Shown here: positions 55,877-64,000 of the stretch, in pieces | Numbering within the stretch: position 1 is the first letter of the stretch | How the letters are laid out: each line of letters opens with the position of its first letter | Origin: an uncultured bacterium | GTDB taxonomy: Bacteria > Babelota > Babeliae > Babelales > Babelaceae | Length of the DNA: 64,000 bases | Assembly: GCA_963819815.1 (NCBI GenBank) | Contig: CAWFXL010000001.1 | Location: 1,184,001 to 1,248,000 of the forward strand | Direction of reading: 5' to 3' | Notes under the pieces: generated by a model | Seen by the model: the letters and a program-made list of their open reading frames with translations, nothing else | The model's database searches: none | Told to the model about the DNA's origin: nothing | Position numbers and translations under genes: made by a program

Positions 55877-56245
55877 ATGCAAAGATTATTTATGCGATGG
55901 TCTGTCGTGCTCAGTGTCGCACTATTTTGTGTAGGTAACGCAGGTCATCTGCACGCCAAAGTTATCACGTTGGTTAATGATGTGGTACATAATGGAGTGG
56001 GGAGTCCTTTTGAGATACCTGAAAGAGTTCACGGTGATAAGCTCGTTATAACATCAACCTCTCATAAAGCGGTAATTATAAGAAAGGGTAGCACGTGGGA
56101 CCTTTCGGATCTATCTTCGACCTATAAGACTATAGAATTTGCGGGAAATGCTCGCTTAGTATGTGAACCAGGCTCTCGACTGCATGGCACCGGTGGGGTG
56201 TTACGCTTTGTAGATGAGGCTCGTTTTATTGTGGGGAAGGAGTAG
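55877..56245 (+). CDS. Small secreted beta-solenoid-like protein
   Basis: GAGG RBS, signal peptide, IEFAGNARL/LRFVDEARF repeats. Confidence 0.65.
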   Translation: MQRLFMRWSVVLSVALFCVGNAGHLHAKVITLVNDVVHNGVGSPFEIPERVHGDKLVITSTSHKAVIIRKGSTWDLSDLSSTYKTIEFAGNARLVCEPGSRLHGTGGVLRFVDEARFIVGKE

Positions 56246-56246
56246 T

Positions 56247-58601
56247 ATGAGCTTGAGCAAGGGAATCATACTGCTTGTCTCCACGGTGTCTTTGTGTAGT
56301 GCGGGAAGAACGGTTACTGATGGGTTTCAAAGTAAATTTGTGCGACCTTCAGTTGATAGACCCACTCCTGATCCTAATCCCTGCTTTCGATTTTTTGATG
56401 TCTATCTGCCTGATGAGTTTGATACGAATCCTGAGATGACCTTTCCTATTGTGTATCATCTTACTGGTTTGGGCGGTACCAATACTCAGTATTCGATGTG
56501 CGATCAGATGGTGATGGATGAGATGCTTGCAAATAAAGAAGTCGTTCCGATGATTATTGTTGCACCAGATCCTAGTACTCTTAATTATAGCAGCAGTTTT
56601 TGGACCGACTCTAATCTCGTGCAAGATCCTACTGAGTCATTTAATAATATGTTTGAAAAATACATAATTGATGAACTCATTCCGTTTGTAGATGCAAAGT
56701 ATCGTCAAAAGACAACTGCTGACGGTGATGCAGGTCCCTTTCGTGCCGTAATGGGTCAATCTATGGGAGGGTATGGTTCTCTATTCTTTGGTATCAAACA
56801 TCCGGAGATGTTTTGTGGGTATGCAGGAGATAGCGCAACAGCTTTTTGGTTGCTCAATACAAACTTAGCCAGTCCCCCAGAGCCCGGGTTTCCTGATGGC
56901 AATCCTATGTTTAGCTTTAGCAAACTTCTTATTCCAGAACTTTCCCAATCAGTGCCTCCGGGAAGACTTGAGTTTGGCAATGGTGATCTTACGGCCGGCT
57001 TTTTTTCTCAGGCAGGAGCATTTAGTCCGATTGTGGAAGGTATTGGGCCATCCAATTGTACCGATGAGACGAATGCCTGTCTTGCTTCAGCACCATTTTG
57101 TTTAGCCTATCCTTTTCTTATGGCTGACCCCGCTACTAATGTTCCTCAGATTGTGAATGGTAGTTTTGTAGTGAACCAACCGATTCTAGATGTCTGGCAG
57201 ACTTTTGATCCCTTTGTATTTCTTGATACTGCTGATCCTGCAACTCTTAATTCTAAGGCAATTTACCTTGATGCGGGTGATGACCTTGTAAATGAGATCG
57301 TTGATAATGTCGGAGCACATTATTTTTCCGCTAAGTTGAGCTCTATGGATGTAAATAATGAATTTCTTTTATTTTGCGGGGGACATACATCATGCACTGC
57401 ACCTCCTATGCTCTACTGTTACCGTTTTACGACGAACCTAAAATTATTCTCAGGTAAGTTTTCAGATGCGGGAATGCCACCAGCTAAAACGGTTATCACG
57501 GGTGACATGACGATTGAACTTGCCGATAGCTCAGTCATGAGCATAACTGATAAAGCGTTGCTTGCTATTGAGACAGTGGATGTATTTAAAGTTTCTAGTA
57601 CGTCAAACGTAACATTTAACATTACTGACTCTGCGCGTCTTGAAATTGGAACTGATGACATACTTGGTGGTGGTCTGCAGGTGGGTAATGCATTTGGTAA
57701 AGCAAACTTGATCTTTGATCATGCTCGTGTTGATGATAGCATAACATGTACTTTGAATATTAATGGGCCAGGTGCGGTCCTTCAGATAGGTAAGCAAGGG
57801 TATCTTGGCTTTGGCATTGGTGTTATTGGTAATAATACCGATGTTGCTAACTACTGGGGACTAACCTCTTTAACTAATGTTGATAGTGTAGTACTTTCAT
57901 TTAACGAAGGACGATTTGAACATAACCAAATAGCTTCAGCATTGGCTGATCGGGGTTCCCTATTAGCACTTGGGGTGAGTAACGCGTATGAGATGATGCT
58001 AAATCCTGAGACCTTCGTCATATCAGGGGGAGCCAATCTTGCAATGATCACCGAAGCAAATCGTATTCATCCTCTTGTACAGGATACTGCTGGTGTTGTC
58101 GACCCAGGTGGAATTCGTAACTGCATTGTGCCAGTACCGGCTCAAGAATTTGATGACTTTTATGGTCCTCCGAAGGGTTTATATAACTCCGAGACCTTCT
58201 CCCAAAACTTACTAACCGTCGGTATCTTATCGTCATCACTGATGCTGTTCGATACTGACAAAGAGCCTCTTGCTAACCCTGCAACGCAGGACCAACTCTA
58301 TACCTTCCTTGCTGTTCAAAATTACTTTGATCAAGGAAGAAAGCGTGCACCTATCAATGAGCTTGATGGGCAGTTAGTTGTTGGCTATATTACGCCTGAG
58401 ACCGTTACCACGGGTGGTGTAACCACAACGACCATGCACATTAATCGCTTTGTGGTGAACCAAGATGATCCCTGTAATGCGTTAACGAACCCCTTTCCCA
58501 CCGATAAAATTCTTGAAGAGGGTGCTGTAGGTATTGCGCTAGCAACTATCGATGGTGAGCTGCAGGTGGTGAGGCTCTTCGATCTTAATCCAGTGGTCTG
58601 A
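56247..58601 (+). CDS. Secreted alpha/beta-hydrolase (esterase family) fused to a beta-solenoid-like C-terminal region
   Basis: VYLP...FPIVYHLTGLG, DELIPFVD, GQSMGG nucleophile elbow, LDAGDD, GGH. Confidence 0.8.
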   Translation: MSLSKGIILLVSTVSLCSAGRTVTDGFQSKFVRPSVDRPTPDPNPCFRFFDVYLPDEFDTNPEMTFPIVYHLTGLGGTNTQYSMCDQMVMDEMLANKEVVPMIIVAPDPSTLNYSSSFWTDSNLVQDPTESFNNMFEKYIIDELIPFVDAKYRQKTTADGDAGPFRAVMGQSMGGYGSLFFGIKHPEMFCGYAGDSATAFWLLNTNLASPPEPGFPDGNPMFSFSKLLIPELSQSVPPGRLEFGNGDLTAGFFSQAGAFSPIVEGIGPSNCTDETNACLASAPFCLAYPFLMADPATNVPQIVNGSFVVNQPILDVWQTFDPFVFLDTADPATLNSKAIYLDAGDDLVNEIVDNVGAHYFSAKLSSMDVNNEFLLFCGGHTSCTAPPMLYCYRFTTNLKLFSGKFSDAGMPPAKTVITGDMTIELADSSVMSITDKALLAIETVDVFKVSSTSNVTFNITDSARLEIGTDDILGGGLQVGNAFGKANLIFDHARVDDSITCTLNINGPGAVLQIGKQGYLGFGIGVIGNNTDVANYWGLTSLTNVDSVVLSFNEGRFEHNQIASALADRGSLLALGVSNAYEMMLNPETFVISGGANLAMITEANRIHPLVQDTAGVVDPGGIRNCIVPVPAQEFDDFYGPPKGLYNSETFSQNLLTVGILSSSLMLFDTDKEPLANPATQDQLYTFLAVQNYFDQGRKRAPINELDGQLVVGYITPETVTTGGVTTTTMHINRFVVNQDDPCNALTNPFPTDKILEEGAVGIALATIDGELQVVRLFDLNPVV

Positions 58602-59964
58602 TTACCTAAGTGTGGTAATCGTTCCATCAGTATCTAAAAAACCCTTATAATAATAGGAGATATAAAGTATAGGGCGCTGCCATTCGATAGCTTTAAAGCG
58701 GGCAGCAAGATACATAAGATGCCGAATGTAGGCCGATTTTGCCCAGAAATCATTTGAGAGTTCTGCGATGACCGCATCTGGATACTGATCATCAGGGCTA
58801 TCGCTGAAGAAAAGTTCAGAGCATACGTAGGGTACCAATGCTACGCCCGGTAAGACGGCAAAGGGAACGCGGGGATTTGTGGACGGTTGTACGATAGGAC
58901 CGACTCCATGAAATAGGGTGCGTATAAAGCTTACGTTATACCAACTTATTGATTCAGTAACTGCCATCGTATGCCGTTTATTGAAGCTTTCTTTAATCTG
59001 CCCATCAGAGATCCAGTACACCGTATTACGGTATTGATCATCTTCCCATTTAAAAGCTCCCACTAAGATCTGTATTGGCTTGCCAAGAGATTCAGTATCC
59101 CAATAGGTAGCAAGTTCGCGAGCGGTATCAAGATTCAGCTTAAATAATGAAGATTCGGGAAGGATGACGACCTCGAGGTCCGGGTACTTCGCTATGAGTG
59201 ATCTGATATCATCTTTGATTGCCTCTATCGATGCCATAGGTTGAGGTACCGGCAGGAATTTTTTTTGAAGTGTGGCTACTTTGTGAAGCCATTGAGGGGG
59301 AGTTTGGGGAGGCTTTGCAGACATACACTGTAAAACCCAGGGAAGCATTCCGATAAGAGGGCATATGCATCTTAGGAGAGTACTCTTTGTGAGTAACGGG
59401 ATCGTGAAGGCAGCATTGGTAAGTAACAGAAACCACATGAGAATACCTTTACCCAGTACAGGCATCCATGAAAGAAGTGCTGGCTGTTCTGCCAGGGGAA
59501 GCAGTGGATACAGAAGAAAGTATCCTTCCCAATAATTAAACATGCTTAAACTTAAATGTATAACCCAATAAAAGTAGAAGCCGGTGGTGAGTATCCACAC
59601 GCCAAGTCGTGCATAGGGAGAAACAATCTGTGCTCGCGTAAGGAAGCGTTGAGGTGAGATAAAACCATACCCCTCCAAAGAATCCTTGAATAATGAGAAT
59701 AACTATTGAAGGAATGATACGGGCCCAAACAGGGCCTATTCCTAATAAAAAGAGCGTCTGAAGTATTCCGGCTCCTCCTAGGGCCCAGAGAAGGGCGCTG
59801 TAGAAAAAGCCATCTTTAAAAGTGAGATTCTGGCGTGAGCCAAGATAGAATAATGGCACGAAGCAGATGAAAGAGCCCCACCATAAGGAAGGGCTCATGA
59901 TAAGGGCAAGCCCATACACGAGTGCTGAGCTTGCGAGTATCATCCATCTGTTTACGGTCTTCAT
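58602..59964 (-). CDS. lnt: Apolipoprotein N-acyltransferase-like protein, one +1 frameshift near 59652
   Basis: N-terminal TMs (59536-59964 ORF) join the CN-hydrolase ORF containing ILPES, FNKRH, VCSE, SNDFW (E-K-C triad). Confidence 0.75.
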
Positions 59965-60560
59965 GCAGCTTCCGCATTTTCTGCTTTCTCTGCAGCCGCT
60001 GCTCCTGTTAGGTCTTTGGTTCCTGCAAGGAAAAGAACTGGCTTATTCTTTACCGGATCCATATAGACGCCAGTACCGTCAGTTTTTAGGGTGATATCCG
60101 CTTTGAAATCACCAGCAAGTTCTTTATGGAGTAATCCAGCATAGGTCATTTTACCGATTTCAACCCACGTTCCTGCGGGATCACTCGCAAAACGGCGATA
60201 GATTCTCATAAGTGTTTTACCAGCAAGTCGAGTACCGGGCCTTTGTCGTTTGTTGTCAAAGGCGATAGTTACCAGCTGACCTTTAGATTCACCCGTTGTT
60301 GGGGTGAAGCTATAGGCAGTTTGAGTACCAGGCTCTTTTGGAAGAGTGAGGGTGACCTTTTTTTCTTGAGTGATCAAACCCAATGAGGTAATTTGATTGC
60401 TCGGTATAGTAAGGGTCATCGTTTCACCAATCGCATTCAAAACCACTGTTTGTTCGCATTGAGAATTTTGCCCACAGGGTTGAAGTACTGTTTTACTATT
60501 GTCTGAATTTGCAAGTAACCCACAGGGGACCGCAAGTAAAGTTATAAGTAATTTCTTCAT
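59961..60560 (-). CDS. Secreted beta protein, NAIG/RPGT family member E
   Basis: Signal peptide; C-x5-C, LNAIG, TAYSF, RPGT, IYR..W; stop overlaps the lnt start (ATGA). Confidence 0.8.
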   Translation of the reverse strand: MKKLLITLLAVPCGLLANSDNSKTVLQPCGQNSQCEQTVVLNAIGETMTLTIPSNQITSLGLITQEKKVTLTLPKEPGTQTAYSFTPTTGESKGQLVTIAFDNKRQRPGTRLAGKTLMRIYRRFASDPAGTWVEIGKMTYAGLLHKELAGDFKADITLKTDGTGVYMDPVKNKPVLFLAGTKDLTGAAAAEKAENAEAA

Positions 60561-60581
60561 TATAGTTTCCTTTAATATATG

Positions 60582-61139
60582 TTAGATGTTTACAGTAAAT
60601 GAACCATCTGGTGATAGCGTTACAGAAACTGGTTCAAGAACCTGATTAGTTTCTACGTAGAGGATATTATTTCGTAACCACTCATTTTTCGCATCATTAT
60701 AACGGTAGAGTTCAACGATATTAAAGTCTTTCCCTGCAGTTAACTTCCTTCCTTCTGCTGTTTGATACGTAAAGTATCGAGTACCAGGACGGGGTGTGCG
60801 CTTCATTTCAAGACCTAAGTATACTGTTTTGCCACCTTGGGTAGTAAACTTATATAAAGTCTTAGCGCCCACTTTTGATGGGATCTGCAGCTTCTCATTG
60901 GTTGCTGAGGTTACCGTGCCAAGATCTATAAAAGATGCTGCACCAGGATCCACATCAAATGTTGATCCTATTGCATTGAGAGTTTGAGTTTGGCTACAGC
61001 TACCGCCACCTAGGCAGGTTTGAACACCGATAAGTGCCTTAATGTCAACTTTTGTGCTATCCATTGCTCGCATATCTCTGACGTTATACGCCAGTGCTGC
61101 GAAGGTAAGTGCGGTGATGATTTTGAATTGGTTCTTCAT
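60582..61139 (-). CDS. Secreted beta protein, NAIG/RPGT family member D
   Basis: Close copy of 61735-62307; VQTCLGGGSC, LNAIG, RPGT. Confidence 0.82.
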   Translation of the reverse strand: MKNQFKIITALTFAALAYNVRDMRAMDSTKVDIKALIGVQTCLGGGSCSQTQTLNAIGSTFDVDPGAASFIDLGTVTSATNEKLQIPSKVGAKTLYKFTTQGGKTVYLGLEMKRTPRPGTRYFTYQTAEGRKLTAGKDFNIVELYRYNDAKNEWLRNNILYVETNQVLEPVSVTLSPDGSFTVNI

Positions 61140-61157
61140 GGTTATTCCTTTTTGTGA

Positions 61158-61712
61158 TTATGGGTTAATAGTTATAGGAAATGAAACTGGGTCGACGCCC
61201 GTTTTTACGAAGATTATGCCTTCGCGTGACCAGTCATTTTTGGCGTCATTATACCGGTAGATTTCAATGATATGATAATCCTTTCCTGCAGTTAACTTCT
61301 TACCGCCTTTAGTATGTAAGATGGGGAAGTCAGCGCCCGGAGCTGGGACGGGCTTCATTTCAAGTCCCATATGCACCGTTTTACCGTCTTTGCGGGTAAA
61401 TTTAAAGAGTGATTGTGCGCCCACTTTTGCGGGAAGCGTAACTATCTCGACCTGTGTTGAGGTTACTTTCCCTAGATCTTTATACACGGCAGTTTTTGGG
61501 TCAATCGTAAAGATTGACCCAAGTGTATTAACTGACTGATCTGGACTACAGCTGCACATGCGGTTATAAAGGACAGTTGTATTTCCAACTTTCTTAGTGA
61601 AGTACGTGTATATCCTTTCTGCAAATGAGATAACTGATGGTAAGCATAGAAGGATGATCGCTATCCTTTGCCACCATATTACCTTTTCTAATTGCTGAGT
61701 ATCCATGTTCAT
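61158..61712 (-). CDS. NAIG/RPGT family member C with different, membrane-anchor-like N-terminus
   Basis: Core similar to B/D (GLEMK, KLTAGKD, YRYNDAKN.W); N-terminus WWQRIAIILLCLP. Confidence 0.8.
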   Translation of the reverse strand: MNMDTQQLEKVIWWQRIAIILLCLPSVISFAERIYTYFTKKVGNTTVLYNRMCSCSPDQSVNTLGSIFTIDPKTAVYKDLGKVTSTQVEIVTLPAKVGAQSLFKFTRKDGKTVHMGLEMKPVPAPGADFPILHTKGGKKLTAGKDYHIIEIYRYNDAKNDWSREGIIFVKTGVDPVSFPITINP

Positions 61713-61734
61713 TCCTAGCTTGCTGGTGTGTTAT

Positions 61735-62307
61735 TTATATCGTTCCGTGTTCTCTTACGGTAAAAGCACCATCAGGCGATAACGTTACAGGAAGTCGCTC
61801 TAAAACCTGATTGGTTTCTACATAGATGATATTATTTCGTAACCACTCATTTTTCGCATCACTATAACGATAGAGTTCAACGATATTAAAGTCTTTCCCT
61901 GCGGTTAACTTCTTTCCTTGTGCTGTTTGATAGGTATAGTATCGTGTGCCAGGACGGGGTGTAGGCTTCATTTCAAGACCTATGTACACCATCTTTCCAT
62001 CTTGTGTAGCAAACTTATACAAAGTCTTAGCTTTAACTTTTGATGGGATCTGGAGCATCGCACTCGTTGGCGAGGTTATGGTACCAAGATCTATAAAAGA
62101 TGCTGTCATAGGATCTACATTAAATGTTGACCCTATTGCATTAAGAGTTTGTGTTTGGGTACAGCTACCGCCACCTAGGCAGGTTTGAACACCGATGATT
62201 GCTTTAATATCAACTTTTACACCGCCACCCAATGCTTGGGCATCCTTGACGTGACAAGCCAAAGCAGCGAATGTAAGTGCTGTGAGGATTTTGAATTGAT
62301 TCTTCAT
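61735..62307 (-). CDS. Secreted beta protein, NAIG/RPGT family member B
   Basis: Signal peptide, VQTCLGGGSC, LNAIG, RPGT. Confidence 0.82.
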   Translation of the reverse strand: MKNQFKILTALTFAALACHVKDAQALGGGVKVDIKAIIGVQTCLGGGSCTQTQTLNAIGSTFNVDPMTASFIDLGTITSPTSAMLQIPSKVKAKTLYKFATQDGKMVYIGLEMKPTPRPGTRYYTYQTAQGKKLTAGKDFNIVELYRYSDAKNEWLRNNIIYVETNQVLERLPVTLSPDGAFTVREHGTI

Positions 62308-62398
62308 GATTAATTCCTTTTTGTTAGATCTGTGTTTATGATGTTATTTGCGCTACTGTTCTCTATCTCAGGATGATCTTCAAATAGATCATCTTCTC

Positions 62399-62947
62399 TT
62401 ATGTGTTTATCACTGTCTGCCCAAGAAGAAACTGAGTGTCCTGTGCAGTGAAGGTTCCATCTGGCTTTACGCTAAATGGCATGTTCAGATTTCCAAAGTT
62501 GAGATTTCCAACCTCGGTCCAGGAGCCTTCTTGATCAACATTTTTTACATTCCTATACATTTTAATAACCATCTTGCCGAAGTCTTTGGTGCCGGGTCGC
62601 TGTGCTACATTATCAAAAACGAGATACACCGTTTTACCTGCAAGGTCATAACCTTGCGAAGGAACAAAGCTATAGGCCGTTCGTGTTCCAGCGGTTACCG
62701 GCAGCACAAGATCTTGATCGGGTTGTGAGAGATCAAGAGGCTGAATTTTAAGCTGACTAAGTGGTATGTTTACCTTGTCTCCAATAGCATTGACTACCTG
62801 CCTACATTTTGTTTTTGGACCACCTTTAACACCAGTACAGGACTGTATCGCTACCCGTATGTTTAATTTAAGATCAAAAAGGGCAGCTTGTATGGAGGAT
62901 ACTCCCAGTGCTGAGCCGGTTAAGATTAAGAGCATATATCTAGTCAT
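62399..62947 (-). CDS. Secreted beta protein, NAIG/RPGT family member A
   Basis: Signal peptide, IQSC...KC, VNAIG, TAYSF, RPGT, MYR..W, PDGTF. Confidence 0.8.
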   Translation of the reverse strand: MTRYMLLILTGSALGVSSIQAALFDLKLNIRVAIQSCTGVKGGPKTKCRQVVNAIGDKVNIPLSQLKIQPLDLSQPDQDLVLPVTAGTRTAYSFVPSQGYDLAGKTVYLVFDNVAQRPGTKDFGKMVIKMYRNVKNVDQEGSWTEVGNLNFGNLNMPFSVKPDGTFTAQDTQFLLGQTVINT

Positions 62948-63003: not shown

Positions 63004-63456
63004 TTAGGGTAATTTCATGCGTATATTAGAATTACATGTAGCTCCCGGAGCACCATTACAGATTACATGCTTATCTCCGATTGTAAGGTTTGTCTGACAG
63101 GTACCATCGGCTGGAGCCTTACATCCTTGATTCATAGATCCCCATCGAATGCATTTTCCTGATTCATCATTGGTAATGCAGGGAATGTTTGCATGTGTCG
63201 TACCTTGACTTGTGGCTGACGGAAGTATCGCATTGCATGACTTGCCCGCTTGAGCGCTACATGATGCTGAACCCAAAAAAGGAACCGAAACGTTTATTGA
63301 ACAGGGACCCTGGCATCCTTGGACCAAGCCGCCCCAAGAGGTACATTCGCCTTTACTATTTCTTTGATGACAGGGAACCTCAACGGTTACTGAGTTTTCA
63401 GCGGCTTCAAGATAGCCGAGTGTCATACTGAGTACGAACAAAACTTTCATCTTCAT
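63004..63456 (-). CDS. Secreted Cys-rich protein with two 6-Cys repeats
   Basis: PC...G.C..WG...QGC repeated twice after the signal MKMKVLFVLSMTLGYLEA. Confidence 0.8.
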   Translation of the reverse strand: MKMKVLFVLSMTLGYLEAAENSVTVEVPCHQRNSKGECTSWGGLVQGCQGPCSINVSVPFLGSASCSAQAGKSCNAILPSATSQGTTHANIPCITNDESGKCIRWGSMNQGCKAPADGTCQTNLTIGDKHVICNGAPGATCNSNIRMKLP

Positions 63457-63480: not shown

Positions 63481-63720
63481 TTATTCTTGCTCTTGTATCT
63501 TACATTCTGTAGGGGTTCCCCAGGTGCCGCAGGCATCTTTTTGGGCCTCCGGGCTACAATCGCGAGCAGGAATATGGTGCACGATTTTAAATATTGGCAC
63601 ATTCTTAAGTTTGCAGGATACAGATCCGGTCATATGAATTGCCTCACCGGCTACTGATTTTTCAACAGCTTCAAGATAGCCGAGTGTCATACCGAGTATG
63701 AACAAAATTTTCATCTTCAT
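63481..63720 (-). CDS. Secreted 79-aa 4-Cys mini-protein
   Basis: Same signal peptide as 63004-63456; mature domain MTGSVSC...IPARDCS.EAQ.DACG.WGTPTECKI. Confidence 0.78.
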   Translation of the reverse strand: MKMKILFILGMTLGYLEAVEKSVAGEAIHMTGSVSCKLKNVPIFKIVHHIPARDCSPEAQKDACGTWGTPTECKIQEQE

Positions 63721-63732
63721 AGTTACTTATCC

Positions 63733-64000
63733 TTATTGTTGTTGGTTTTTGCGCAACTGTTCTTGTCGTATTTTTTCAATGTCGAGTATCTTACATTCAG
63801 TGGGAGTTCCCCAGACGCCACAAGCATCTCTTTGCGCCTCTTGGCTACAATCTCGAGCCGGAATATGTCCCACAATTTTTTGGGGTAAAATATTAACTCT
63901 GCAGGATACGGATCCGGTCATAGGTATGACTTCCGCCCATGCCTTGAGTGCATTAGGATCGCCCCACGTTTGGCAAGAAAGAACTTTGCCTGCACTAGGA
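63733..64000 (-). CDS. C-terminal part of a Cys-rich protein that starts beyond the window
   Basis: Frame open to the edge: ...PSAGKVLSCQTWGDPNALKAWAEVIP-MTGSVSC...WGTPTECKI; same domain as 63481-63720. Confidence 0.75.
   Translation of the reverse strand, partial: PSAGKVLSCQTWGDPNALKAWAEVIPMTGSVSCRVNILPQKIVGHIPARDCSQEAQRDACGVWGTPTECKILDIEKIRQEQLRKNQQQ

Follow-up and report, generated by a model that had tools for sequence, protein, structure and literature searches.

Tandem families of surface proteins are known from obligate intracellular bacteria, for example the OMP-1/P28 proteins of the Anaplasmataceae and the chlamydial Pmp proteins, which are outer-membrane beta-barrels or autotransporters. 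Paralogous subunits are also encoded side by side in the operons of chaperone-usher pilins and of the type V pilins (FimA/Mfa) of Bacteroidota, the latter being larger, two-domain proteins with lipoprotein-pathway biogenesis. Here, we describe an array of five paralogous genes (A to E) next to lnt, the gene of an apolipoprotein N-acyltransferase (Lnt) homologue, in a 64,000-nucleotide stretch of the genome of an uncultured, amoeba-associated bacterium of the Babelota (Dependentiae), hereafter the window. As in the OMP-1/P28 and Pmp families, divergent paralogues stand in tandem in a host-dependent bacterium and show lineage-specific expansion. Unlike those proteins, the array products are small, soluble-looking beta-sandwiches by prediction and carry no C-terminal aromatic signal. 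A first-pass annotation of the window had seen in them exported all-beta proteins of an undescribed family, encoded in one operon with lnt, which the present analysis bears out, and had gone on to propose a donor-strand fibre with major, minor and anchor subunits, a pilus reading that is not supported by the tests run here. Instead, we tentatively favour, with somewhat less than even confidence, a repertoire of binding proteins, specific to the lineage, that would be exported by Sec, bear a disulfide and reside at the envelope or surface, their genes being part of an envelope/secretome operon.

The array consists of the following genes:
62399-62947, minus strand: paralogue A, 182 amino acids (aa), with a signal peptide, a Cys pair 10 residues apart, the motif NAIG and a full-length family C-terminus (E = 4.6e-29 against a profile from other genomes)
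61735-62307, minus strand: paralogue B, 190 aa, without the last family strand and with a lipobox-like ALAC at residue 18
61158-61712, minus strand: paralogue C, 184 aa, with a longer N-region ahead of the hydrophobic segment and a CxC pair, and without the last two family strands (E = 8.5e-10)
60582-61139, minus strand: paralogue D, 185 aa, nearly the same as B but lacking Cys18
59961-60560, minus strand: paralogue E, 199 aa, the most conserved class and the orthologue of the lnt-proximal gene in other arrays

Together, the five co-oriented paralogues span positions 59961-62947 of the minus strand, with intergenic gaps of 91, 22, 18 and 21 nucleotides (nt) for A-B, B-C, C-D and D-E, respectively. 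E and the next open reading frame (ORF), lnt, overlap by 4 nt (ATGA), the stop codon of the former running into the start codon of the latter. A family hidden Markov model (HMM), built from 51 members of other genomes with that of the window (G000) and its closest relative (G001) left out, matched exactly A-E among the 167 ORFs of at least 60 aa in the window, with E-values from 2.5e-42 to 8.5e-10, the rest giving nothing at E<=10. Pairwise BLAST was significant for nine of the ten pairs, the exception being A versus C (E 2.1). The five adjacent, co-oriented paralogues, the overlap with lnt and the close kinship of B and D, which are 80% identical, are thus confirmed as first annotated. C and E are 91% and 98% identical to their G001 orthologue and counterpart, respectively. 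The G000 assembly (1.64 Mb in two contigs, 88% complete) holds these five family copies only, and the G+C content of the array (0.42-0.46) is the same as in the rest of the window.

On a contig of a soil-metagenome relative, position 61727 is linked back to 60588, which suggests either a different B/C/D copy number or an assembly collapse of near-identical copies. In the closest relative, one B-like gene forms a 263-aa frame, with part of the C-terminal third repeated behind a B-like domain (L023, 7108-7899).

None of the five proteins has a match of any weight in Pfam or NCBIfam. A search of 1.84 billion representative proteins retrieved 128 at E<=0.001, most of them single-domain proteins of 160-250 aa. 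The remaining matches are long repeat proteins that align only at profile positions of about 131-180; the twelve of these that were scanned are FG-GAP_2/Kelch-type propellers, except for one PPC-domain protein. Of 261 Dependentiae genomes, 25 carry the family; they represent 11 of 145 genera and three taxonomic families (14/40 genomes of f1, 2/2 of f17 and 8/80 of f19). Within a genome nearly all matches are adjacent, in tandem arrays of 2-6; the homologues are operonic and not scattered. A scan of the genome contigs with protein E found only the closest relative. No description of the family was found in the literature on the outer membrane, pili or adhesins of Dependentiae/Babelota, within a coverage that leaves out most subscription journals.

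Read from the sequence by eye, the N-terminus of every member is a hydrophobic segment with AxA-like sites behind it, and Sec-type export of the family is predicted from these N-terminal segments. The Cys pair and the downstream NAxG motif are kept in 58 of 61 members. Across the family the two Cys are 1-20 residues apart, and the second Cys lies from 4 to more than 100 residues ahead of NAxG, with Gly/Pro-rich inserts of variable length in between. Because of these variable linkers between the Cys loop and the core, the N-terminal module looks like a tethered element. Next to the Cys pair, the other motifs listed by the first-pass annotation (NA/T-I/L-G, (A/L)(Y/F)xF, (R/A)PG(T/A) and YR...W) are all present in the alignment of A-E. 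The family consensus ends with PDGT, a turn and an F.LGKKD strand. Four of the five proteins had been credited with a DG-containing terminal strand: PDG/TDG is indeed found in A, B, D and E and is absent from C, which ends before it, but B and D stop after the first of the two C-terminal strands and lack the last one. Similarly, A and E, previously grouped as one subtype, have the full-length C-terminus in common but do not cluster as sisters in the tree. Of the 61 members, 7 show a lipobox-like motif at the signal peptide; B and both B-like copies of G001 are among these, whereas A, C, D and E are not. The conserved Cys itself sits 10-25 residues beyond the hydrophobic segment, and the residues ahead of it are not lipobox-like.

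Two other readings of these features were rejected. An outer-membrane beta-barrel is ruled out by the missing C-terminal aromatic residue and the short strands, and a thioester or isopeptide function of the Cys motif was ruled out by eye, no conserved Cys-Gly-Gln being present.

In the AlphaFold2 model of B (78-sequence alignment), the predicted local distance difference test score (pLDDT) averages 80, with residues 61-185 above 90 and folded into ten strands and residues 1-60 at 38-59. The model of mature A was based on 57 curated, aligned sequences that were cut back to begin 16 residues ahead of the first Cys; its core (residues 38-158) reaches a pLDDT of about 90, and residues 1-33 remain below 50. 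The conserved N-terminal 33-60 residues are therefore unmodelled in both monomer predictions. Foldseek returned nothing at E<=0.001 for both models against PDB, nor for model A against the viral library BFVD. Among the 48,161 chains compared with VIA-align, none reached Z>=5 with either model; the best values, 4.8 and 4.6, are within noise, compared to the 7-8 that this tool reports as typical even for models without a clear Foldseek match. The top rows were Ptr ToxA, Siah1 and flavivirus E domain I for model B, and rotavirus VP8*, galectins, PliI and many propeller fragments for model A. The VP8* match (Z 4.6, root-mean-square deviation (rmsd) 4.1 over 91 aligned residues) is tied with unrelated folds. 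Carbohydrate-binding proteins appear as weak, insignificant neighbours, with Z-scores of 3.7-4.1 for galectins and 3.6-4.3 for two-blade lectins. LolA, lipocalin, outer-membrane barrel and pilin folds were not among the matches listed by VIA-align, a listing that does not exclude them. At the sequence level, the family profile found nothing below E 0.15 among PDB sequences, and residues 18-180 of B and E had no usable match in the ESM Atlas. A fold comparison had been suggested in the first-pass annotation as a check on the fibre; no pilin was among the neighbours listed, and the core has no significant match to a known enzyme or lectin family either. A confidently predicted domain that matches no solved structure makes the family a tractable subject.

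The C-terminal part of the core has its own weak likeness to known proteins. In hhalign, its last 45 residues resemble a single blade of the FG-GAP_2 propellers with a probability of 69%, the similarity taking in the 45-50 C-terminal residues with YR..W...PDG and being no longer than that one blade. In the structural comparison, two-blade propeller lectins, a group to which RSL and BambL belong, and propeller segments align weakly to residues 90-190 (Z 3.6-4.3). Unlike FG-GAP proteins, however, the array proteins have no FG-GAP Pfam match at E<=1 and no internal repeat, profile self-comparison having detected no duplication within the core, and the scores are within noise.

PliI, a periplasmic lysozyme inhibitor, raises the thought that the family might inhibit host hydrolases in the manner of lysozyme or protease inhibitors, from the periplasm or after secretion, forming a repertoire against different food-vacuole enzymes. 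The proteins are small exported beta-sandwiches by prediction, and the hosts are phagotrophic protists according to PMC6561590 and PMC12172432. The PliI match (Z 4.4, 83 residues, rmsd 3.8), however, is within noise and level with dozens of unrelated folds, and Pfam, NCBIfam and PDB-sequence searches revealed no similarity to inhibitor families. Such a role is very unlikely.

As mentioned above, a polymerising fibre had been proposed. In its present form, this explanation needs no usher or chaperone: the N-terminal strand of one subunit would fill the incomplete sheet of its neighbour, with B, D and C as acceptors. Several features look right for it. In comparison with A and E, the C-terminal end of B and D is one family strand short and that of C two, and the N-terminal residues, conserved yet never packed on the core in the monomer models, have the expected look of an inter-subunit element. 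In addition, the arrays are tandem and multi-paralogous, and the E class is orthologous across the genus. With chaperone-usher pilins the family shares small exported all-beta paralogues in one operon, a putative disulfide near the N-terminus and an N-terminal segment outside the modelled core. However, G000, at 88% completeness, gave no match at E<=0.01 to the usher (PF00577, for which the E. coli control was positive) or to the PapD-like chaperone (PF00345), no usher being present among the neighbouring ORFs of the window either, and FimA/Mfa (PF06321) is absent from it as well. The five proteins have no fimbrial Pfam match, FimA/Mfa included, and no Ig-like pilin among their listed fold neighbours. 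Type V pilins, too, come as operons of paralogous subunits and depend on lipoprotein biogenesis, the conserved neighbour of the array being an Lnt homologue; in contrast, few array proteins have a lipobox-like motif, and they are one-domain proteins of 160-180 residues.

The alternating hydrophobic extension that the first-pass annotation had pointed out in A, B and D is visible by eye but does not exceed chance. When the 16-residue segment ahead of the first Cys was compared with 2000 composition-matched shuffles of each member's own segment, 0 of 57 members beat the shuffles at p<0.05 (p = 0.17 for A and about 0.65 for B and D). Furthermore, members from the other two taxonomic families have little or no N-terminal extension, the truncated B/C/D clade is confined to G000 and G001, and arrays of merely two genes exist. 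A three-copy prediction of residues 27-190 of B from its own alignment, run without controls, gave an interface score (ipSAE) of 0.00 in both runs and weighs neither way on binding. Taken together, a strand-exchange fibre appears quite unlikely. We consider equally doubtful the more specific version in which the N-terminal Cys-loop segment completes the open sheet edge of the next subunit, B, D and C having lost their last one or two strands and assembly being tied to the Lnt-containing operon. If there were polymerisation after all, it would constitute a new assembly route; a fibre without usher or chaperone would then, improbable as it is, fall in a phylum for which no outer-membrane tether or pilus-like adhesion system of such type has been described.

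Another point against the fibre is that the evolutionary analysis shows no subunit classes kept from species to species. A tree was made of 30 members, which come from nine genomes; in it, the lnt-proximal genes of the genus form an E-type clade (support 88/92), and most of the other copies are species-specific duplicates. Such lineage-specific duplications include B/D in the window, three copies in G009 and two each in G003 and G030. Between G000 and G001, the ratio of nonsynonymous to synonymous substitution rates (dN/dS) is 0.16 for A, 0.25 for B, 0.22 for C, 0.26 for D and 0.06 for E. For the neighbouring genes, which are introduced below, it is 0.20-0.26 (Cys-rich genes), 0.13 (est795), 0.08 (p122), 0.07 (lnt) and 0.04 (the AAA gene). 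Judged by these ratios, the genes are functional and all are under purifying selection, which is relaxed in A-D; A-D and the Cys-rich genes change faster than E, lnt, p122, est795 and the AAA gene.

The gene following E is:
58602-59964, minus strand: Lnt homologue (apolipoprotein N-acyltransferase-like), read in two frames as 59536-59964 plus 58602-59678

A profile of 15 Dependentiae homologues of this protein matches solved Lnt over positions 20-431, almost its whole length (5xhq, E 6.5e-11), and the PE, K.H and C.E motifs align with it. E270, K329 and C381, which correspond to the catalytic Glu-Lys-Cys triad of Lnt, are invariant in all 15 homologues. With 58-62 bits the homologues score below the curated TIGR00546 cut-off of 132.9. 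In the window, one surplus base near 59642-59646 breaks the gene into its two frames; neither the closest genome nor the contig of the soil-metagenome relative has it. This suggests that the break is either very recent or an assembly error, since the dN/dS of the C-terminal part is 0.07. A second frameshift, in a Cys-rich gene that runs beyond the window end, makes an assembly error plausible for lnt, the two frameshifts lying within 6 kb. The split gene is the sole Lnt homologue in G000.

The linkage between array and lnt is conserved. The first-pass annotation had proposed to look for such synteny across Babelota; in the neighbourhood set (the window and 16 loci of other genomes), the array has an Lnt homologue no more than 1.4 kb away in 15 of the 17 genomes. 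The exceptions are G030, where the distance is 4.6 kb, and G008 (77% complete), where lnt is missing at the locus; a query with the Lnt of G001 found nothing anywhere in G008, nor in G002 and G007. The adjacency survives changes of orientation and also holds where est795 lies elsewhere (G182 and G183) or was not found (G029). Tandem pairs of Lnt homologues stand beside the array in two genomes that belong to one genus (L033, 12086-14845; L038, 4962-7715). In four loci of the same taxonomic family (L033, L034, L038 and L040), an ankyrin-repeat gene lies between lnt and the array.

This linkage could mean that the array proteins are partners or substrates of the Lnt homologue, either as unusual acylated proteins or as periplasmic factors that act with Lnt and the esterase in lipid or lipoprotein handling. 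The adjacency persists through inversions, also where est795 and p590, another recurrent neighbour, are far off (G182, G183 and G029); added to this come the ATGA overlap, the invariant E-K-C triad and a conserved Cys near the mature N-terminus of all members. As described above, though, this Cys lacks lipobox-like residues and lies well past the hydrophobic segment, and a lipobox-like motif at the signal peptide is the exception. Moreover, arrays are kept despite a frameshifted lnt in G000, a split one in G009 and none found in G008, and LolA- or lipocalin-type folds are not among the structural neighbours listed. We regard such a partnership as unlikely. The genomes in which Lnt is intact, split or lost offer natural variation for studying any dependence on Lnt.

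This brings us back to the favoured explanation, a diversifying repertoire of envelope-associated or released binding proteins. In such a scenario, a Sec-type signal peptide would be cleaved off to leave a mature protein of about 17 kDa, consisting of a flexible N-terminal segment with the conserved Cys...Cys loop, followed by NAxG(D/E) and a compact core, a beta-sandwich of 9-10 strands whose fold is not recognised. Outside the cytoplasm, at the surface or extracellularly, a disulfide would form in the Cys loop, the N-terminal module would dock or tether the core, and the core would bind ligands in an adhesin- or lectin-like manner during the interaction with the protist host. Dependentiae live as obligate parasites of protists and are widespread. 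According to PMC6561590, almost half of their proteins are exported, mostly without annotation: in one cultured member, 44% of the coding sequences have a signal peptide, and ORFans are enriched in the secreted set. If host-surface binding is true, the family members would be candidate host-range determinants.

Several points weigh against this repertoire of binding proteins. The label 'binding protein' rests on weak resemblance and context, as no fold or sequence match is significant, and the location of the family is a prediction. The sole hint of expression is a 239-nt contig of an RNA library that covers 60248-60485 within E with one mismatch, and it may be DNA carry-over. The sequencing runs cover small shares of the stretch, 0.07 for the DNA run and 0.05 for the RNA run, and the uncovered parts are uninformative in the latter. 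The N-terminal module that the models leave unpacked may equally fit an oligomerisation element. With dN/dS well below 1, the whole-gene comparison gives no sign of positive selection. Finally, the tightest conserved neighbour is Lnt, and the favoured explanation does not account for this linkage.

Around the array and lnt, further genes for secreted proteins are found:
56214-58601, plus strand: est795, secreted, with an N-terminal esterase domain (PF00756, E 7e-20) and a beta-helix-like C-terminal part, convergent with lnt
55877-56245, plus strand: p122, a small secreted protein whose gene overlaps the est795 start and lies upstream of est795 across the phylum
63004-63456, minus strand: Cys-rich small secreted protein, 150 aa, 56 nt upstream of A
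63481-63720, minus strand: Cys-rich small secreted protein, 79 aa, co-oriented
63733-64000, minus strand: 3' part of a Cys-rich secreted gene of roughly 287 aa, which continues past the window end and is frameshifted near its 5' end

The co-oriented block thus runs on upstream of A through the two small Cys-rich genes (63004-63456 and 63481-63720) and past the window end. The third Cys-rich gene (L031, 733-1606) extends to about 600 nt beyond it, its signal peptide being out of frame with the remainder. Further on, a co-oriented gene at L031 1603-2253 encodes a 216-aa secreted protein with a repetitive, G/T/V-rich, beta-helix-like sequence; as it heads the minus-strand block, the block spans about ten genes. 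The 150-aa Cys-rich protein holds two C-x7-C-N-(A/S) stretches that look like the Cys loop and NAxG of the array proteins, which may be a coincidence.

In chlamydiae, a cysteine-rich complex is part of the outer membrane. By analogy, the N-terminal Cys loop of the array proteins might link them to one another or to their Cys-rich neighbours in a disulfide-cross-linked lattice that stiffens the envelope of an extracellular stage. The Cys pair is nearly invariant (58/61), and homologues of the Cys-rich small secreted proteins flank arrays in the same genus as the window. None of four known outer-membrane tethering systems is reported from ten Dependentiae genomes (bioRxiv 10.1101/2021.05.31.446380), and a cultured organism is described with inner and outer membranes and dark-staining periplasmic material (PMC6561590). 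On the other hand, a family found in 25 of 261 genomes is no general envelope solution, two Cys a few residues apart are more likely to form an internal loop, and arrays of the other two taxonomic families have no Cys-rich neighbours. We judge a lattice to be rather unlikely.

Besides Lnt, the recurrent neighbours of the arrays are est795, p122 and p590, a protein of roughly 590 aa with a signal peptide and a C-terminal aromatic residue, which is a putative outer-membrane barrel. In one genome (L037), p122, p590, est795, lnt and the array are all co-directional with gaps of at most 115 nt. As a control for background synteny, the AAA ATPase, a 777-aa protein and the two Cys-rich proteins were considered, and these are not near the arrays of the other two taxonomic families. 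Array, Lnt, esterase exoprotein and outer-membrane partner thus travel together as a neighbourhood signature. Full-length est795 occurs in 25 of 261 genomes, 22 of which carry an array, and conversely 22 of the 25 array genomes hold a full-length est795; the cut-off for 'full-length' (E<1e-60) was set after viewing the table. The array occurs without est795 in G062, G029 and G199, and est795 without the array in G218, G219 and G234. In a genome of the same genus that is 97% complete, array, lnt, est795 and p590 are jointly missing. It is quite possible, if short of probable, that the array is part of an ancestral envelope/secretome operon with the order p122 - p590 - est795 - Lnt - array.

The distribution of p590 is wider than that of the array, with 149 of 261 genomes. 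In G000 it lies about 68 kb from the array (L041, G000:C1:1314298-1315974). The gene usually stands beside that of a 1300-1800-aa protein sharing the central domain of est795, and, going by sequence, the two look like a phylum-wide pair of outer-membrane protein and exoprotein for which there is no Pfam model.

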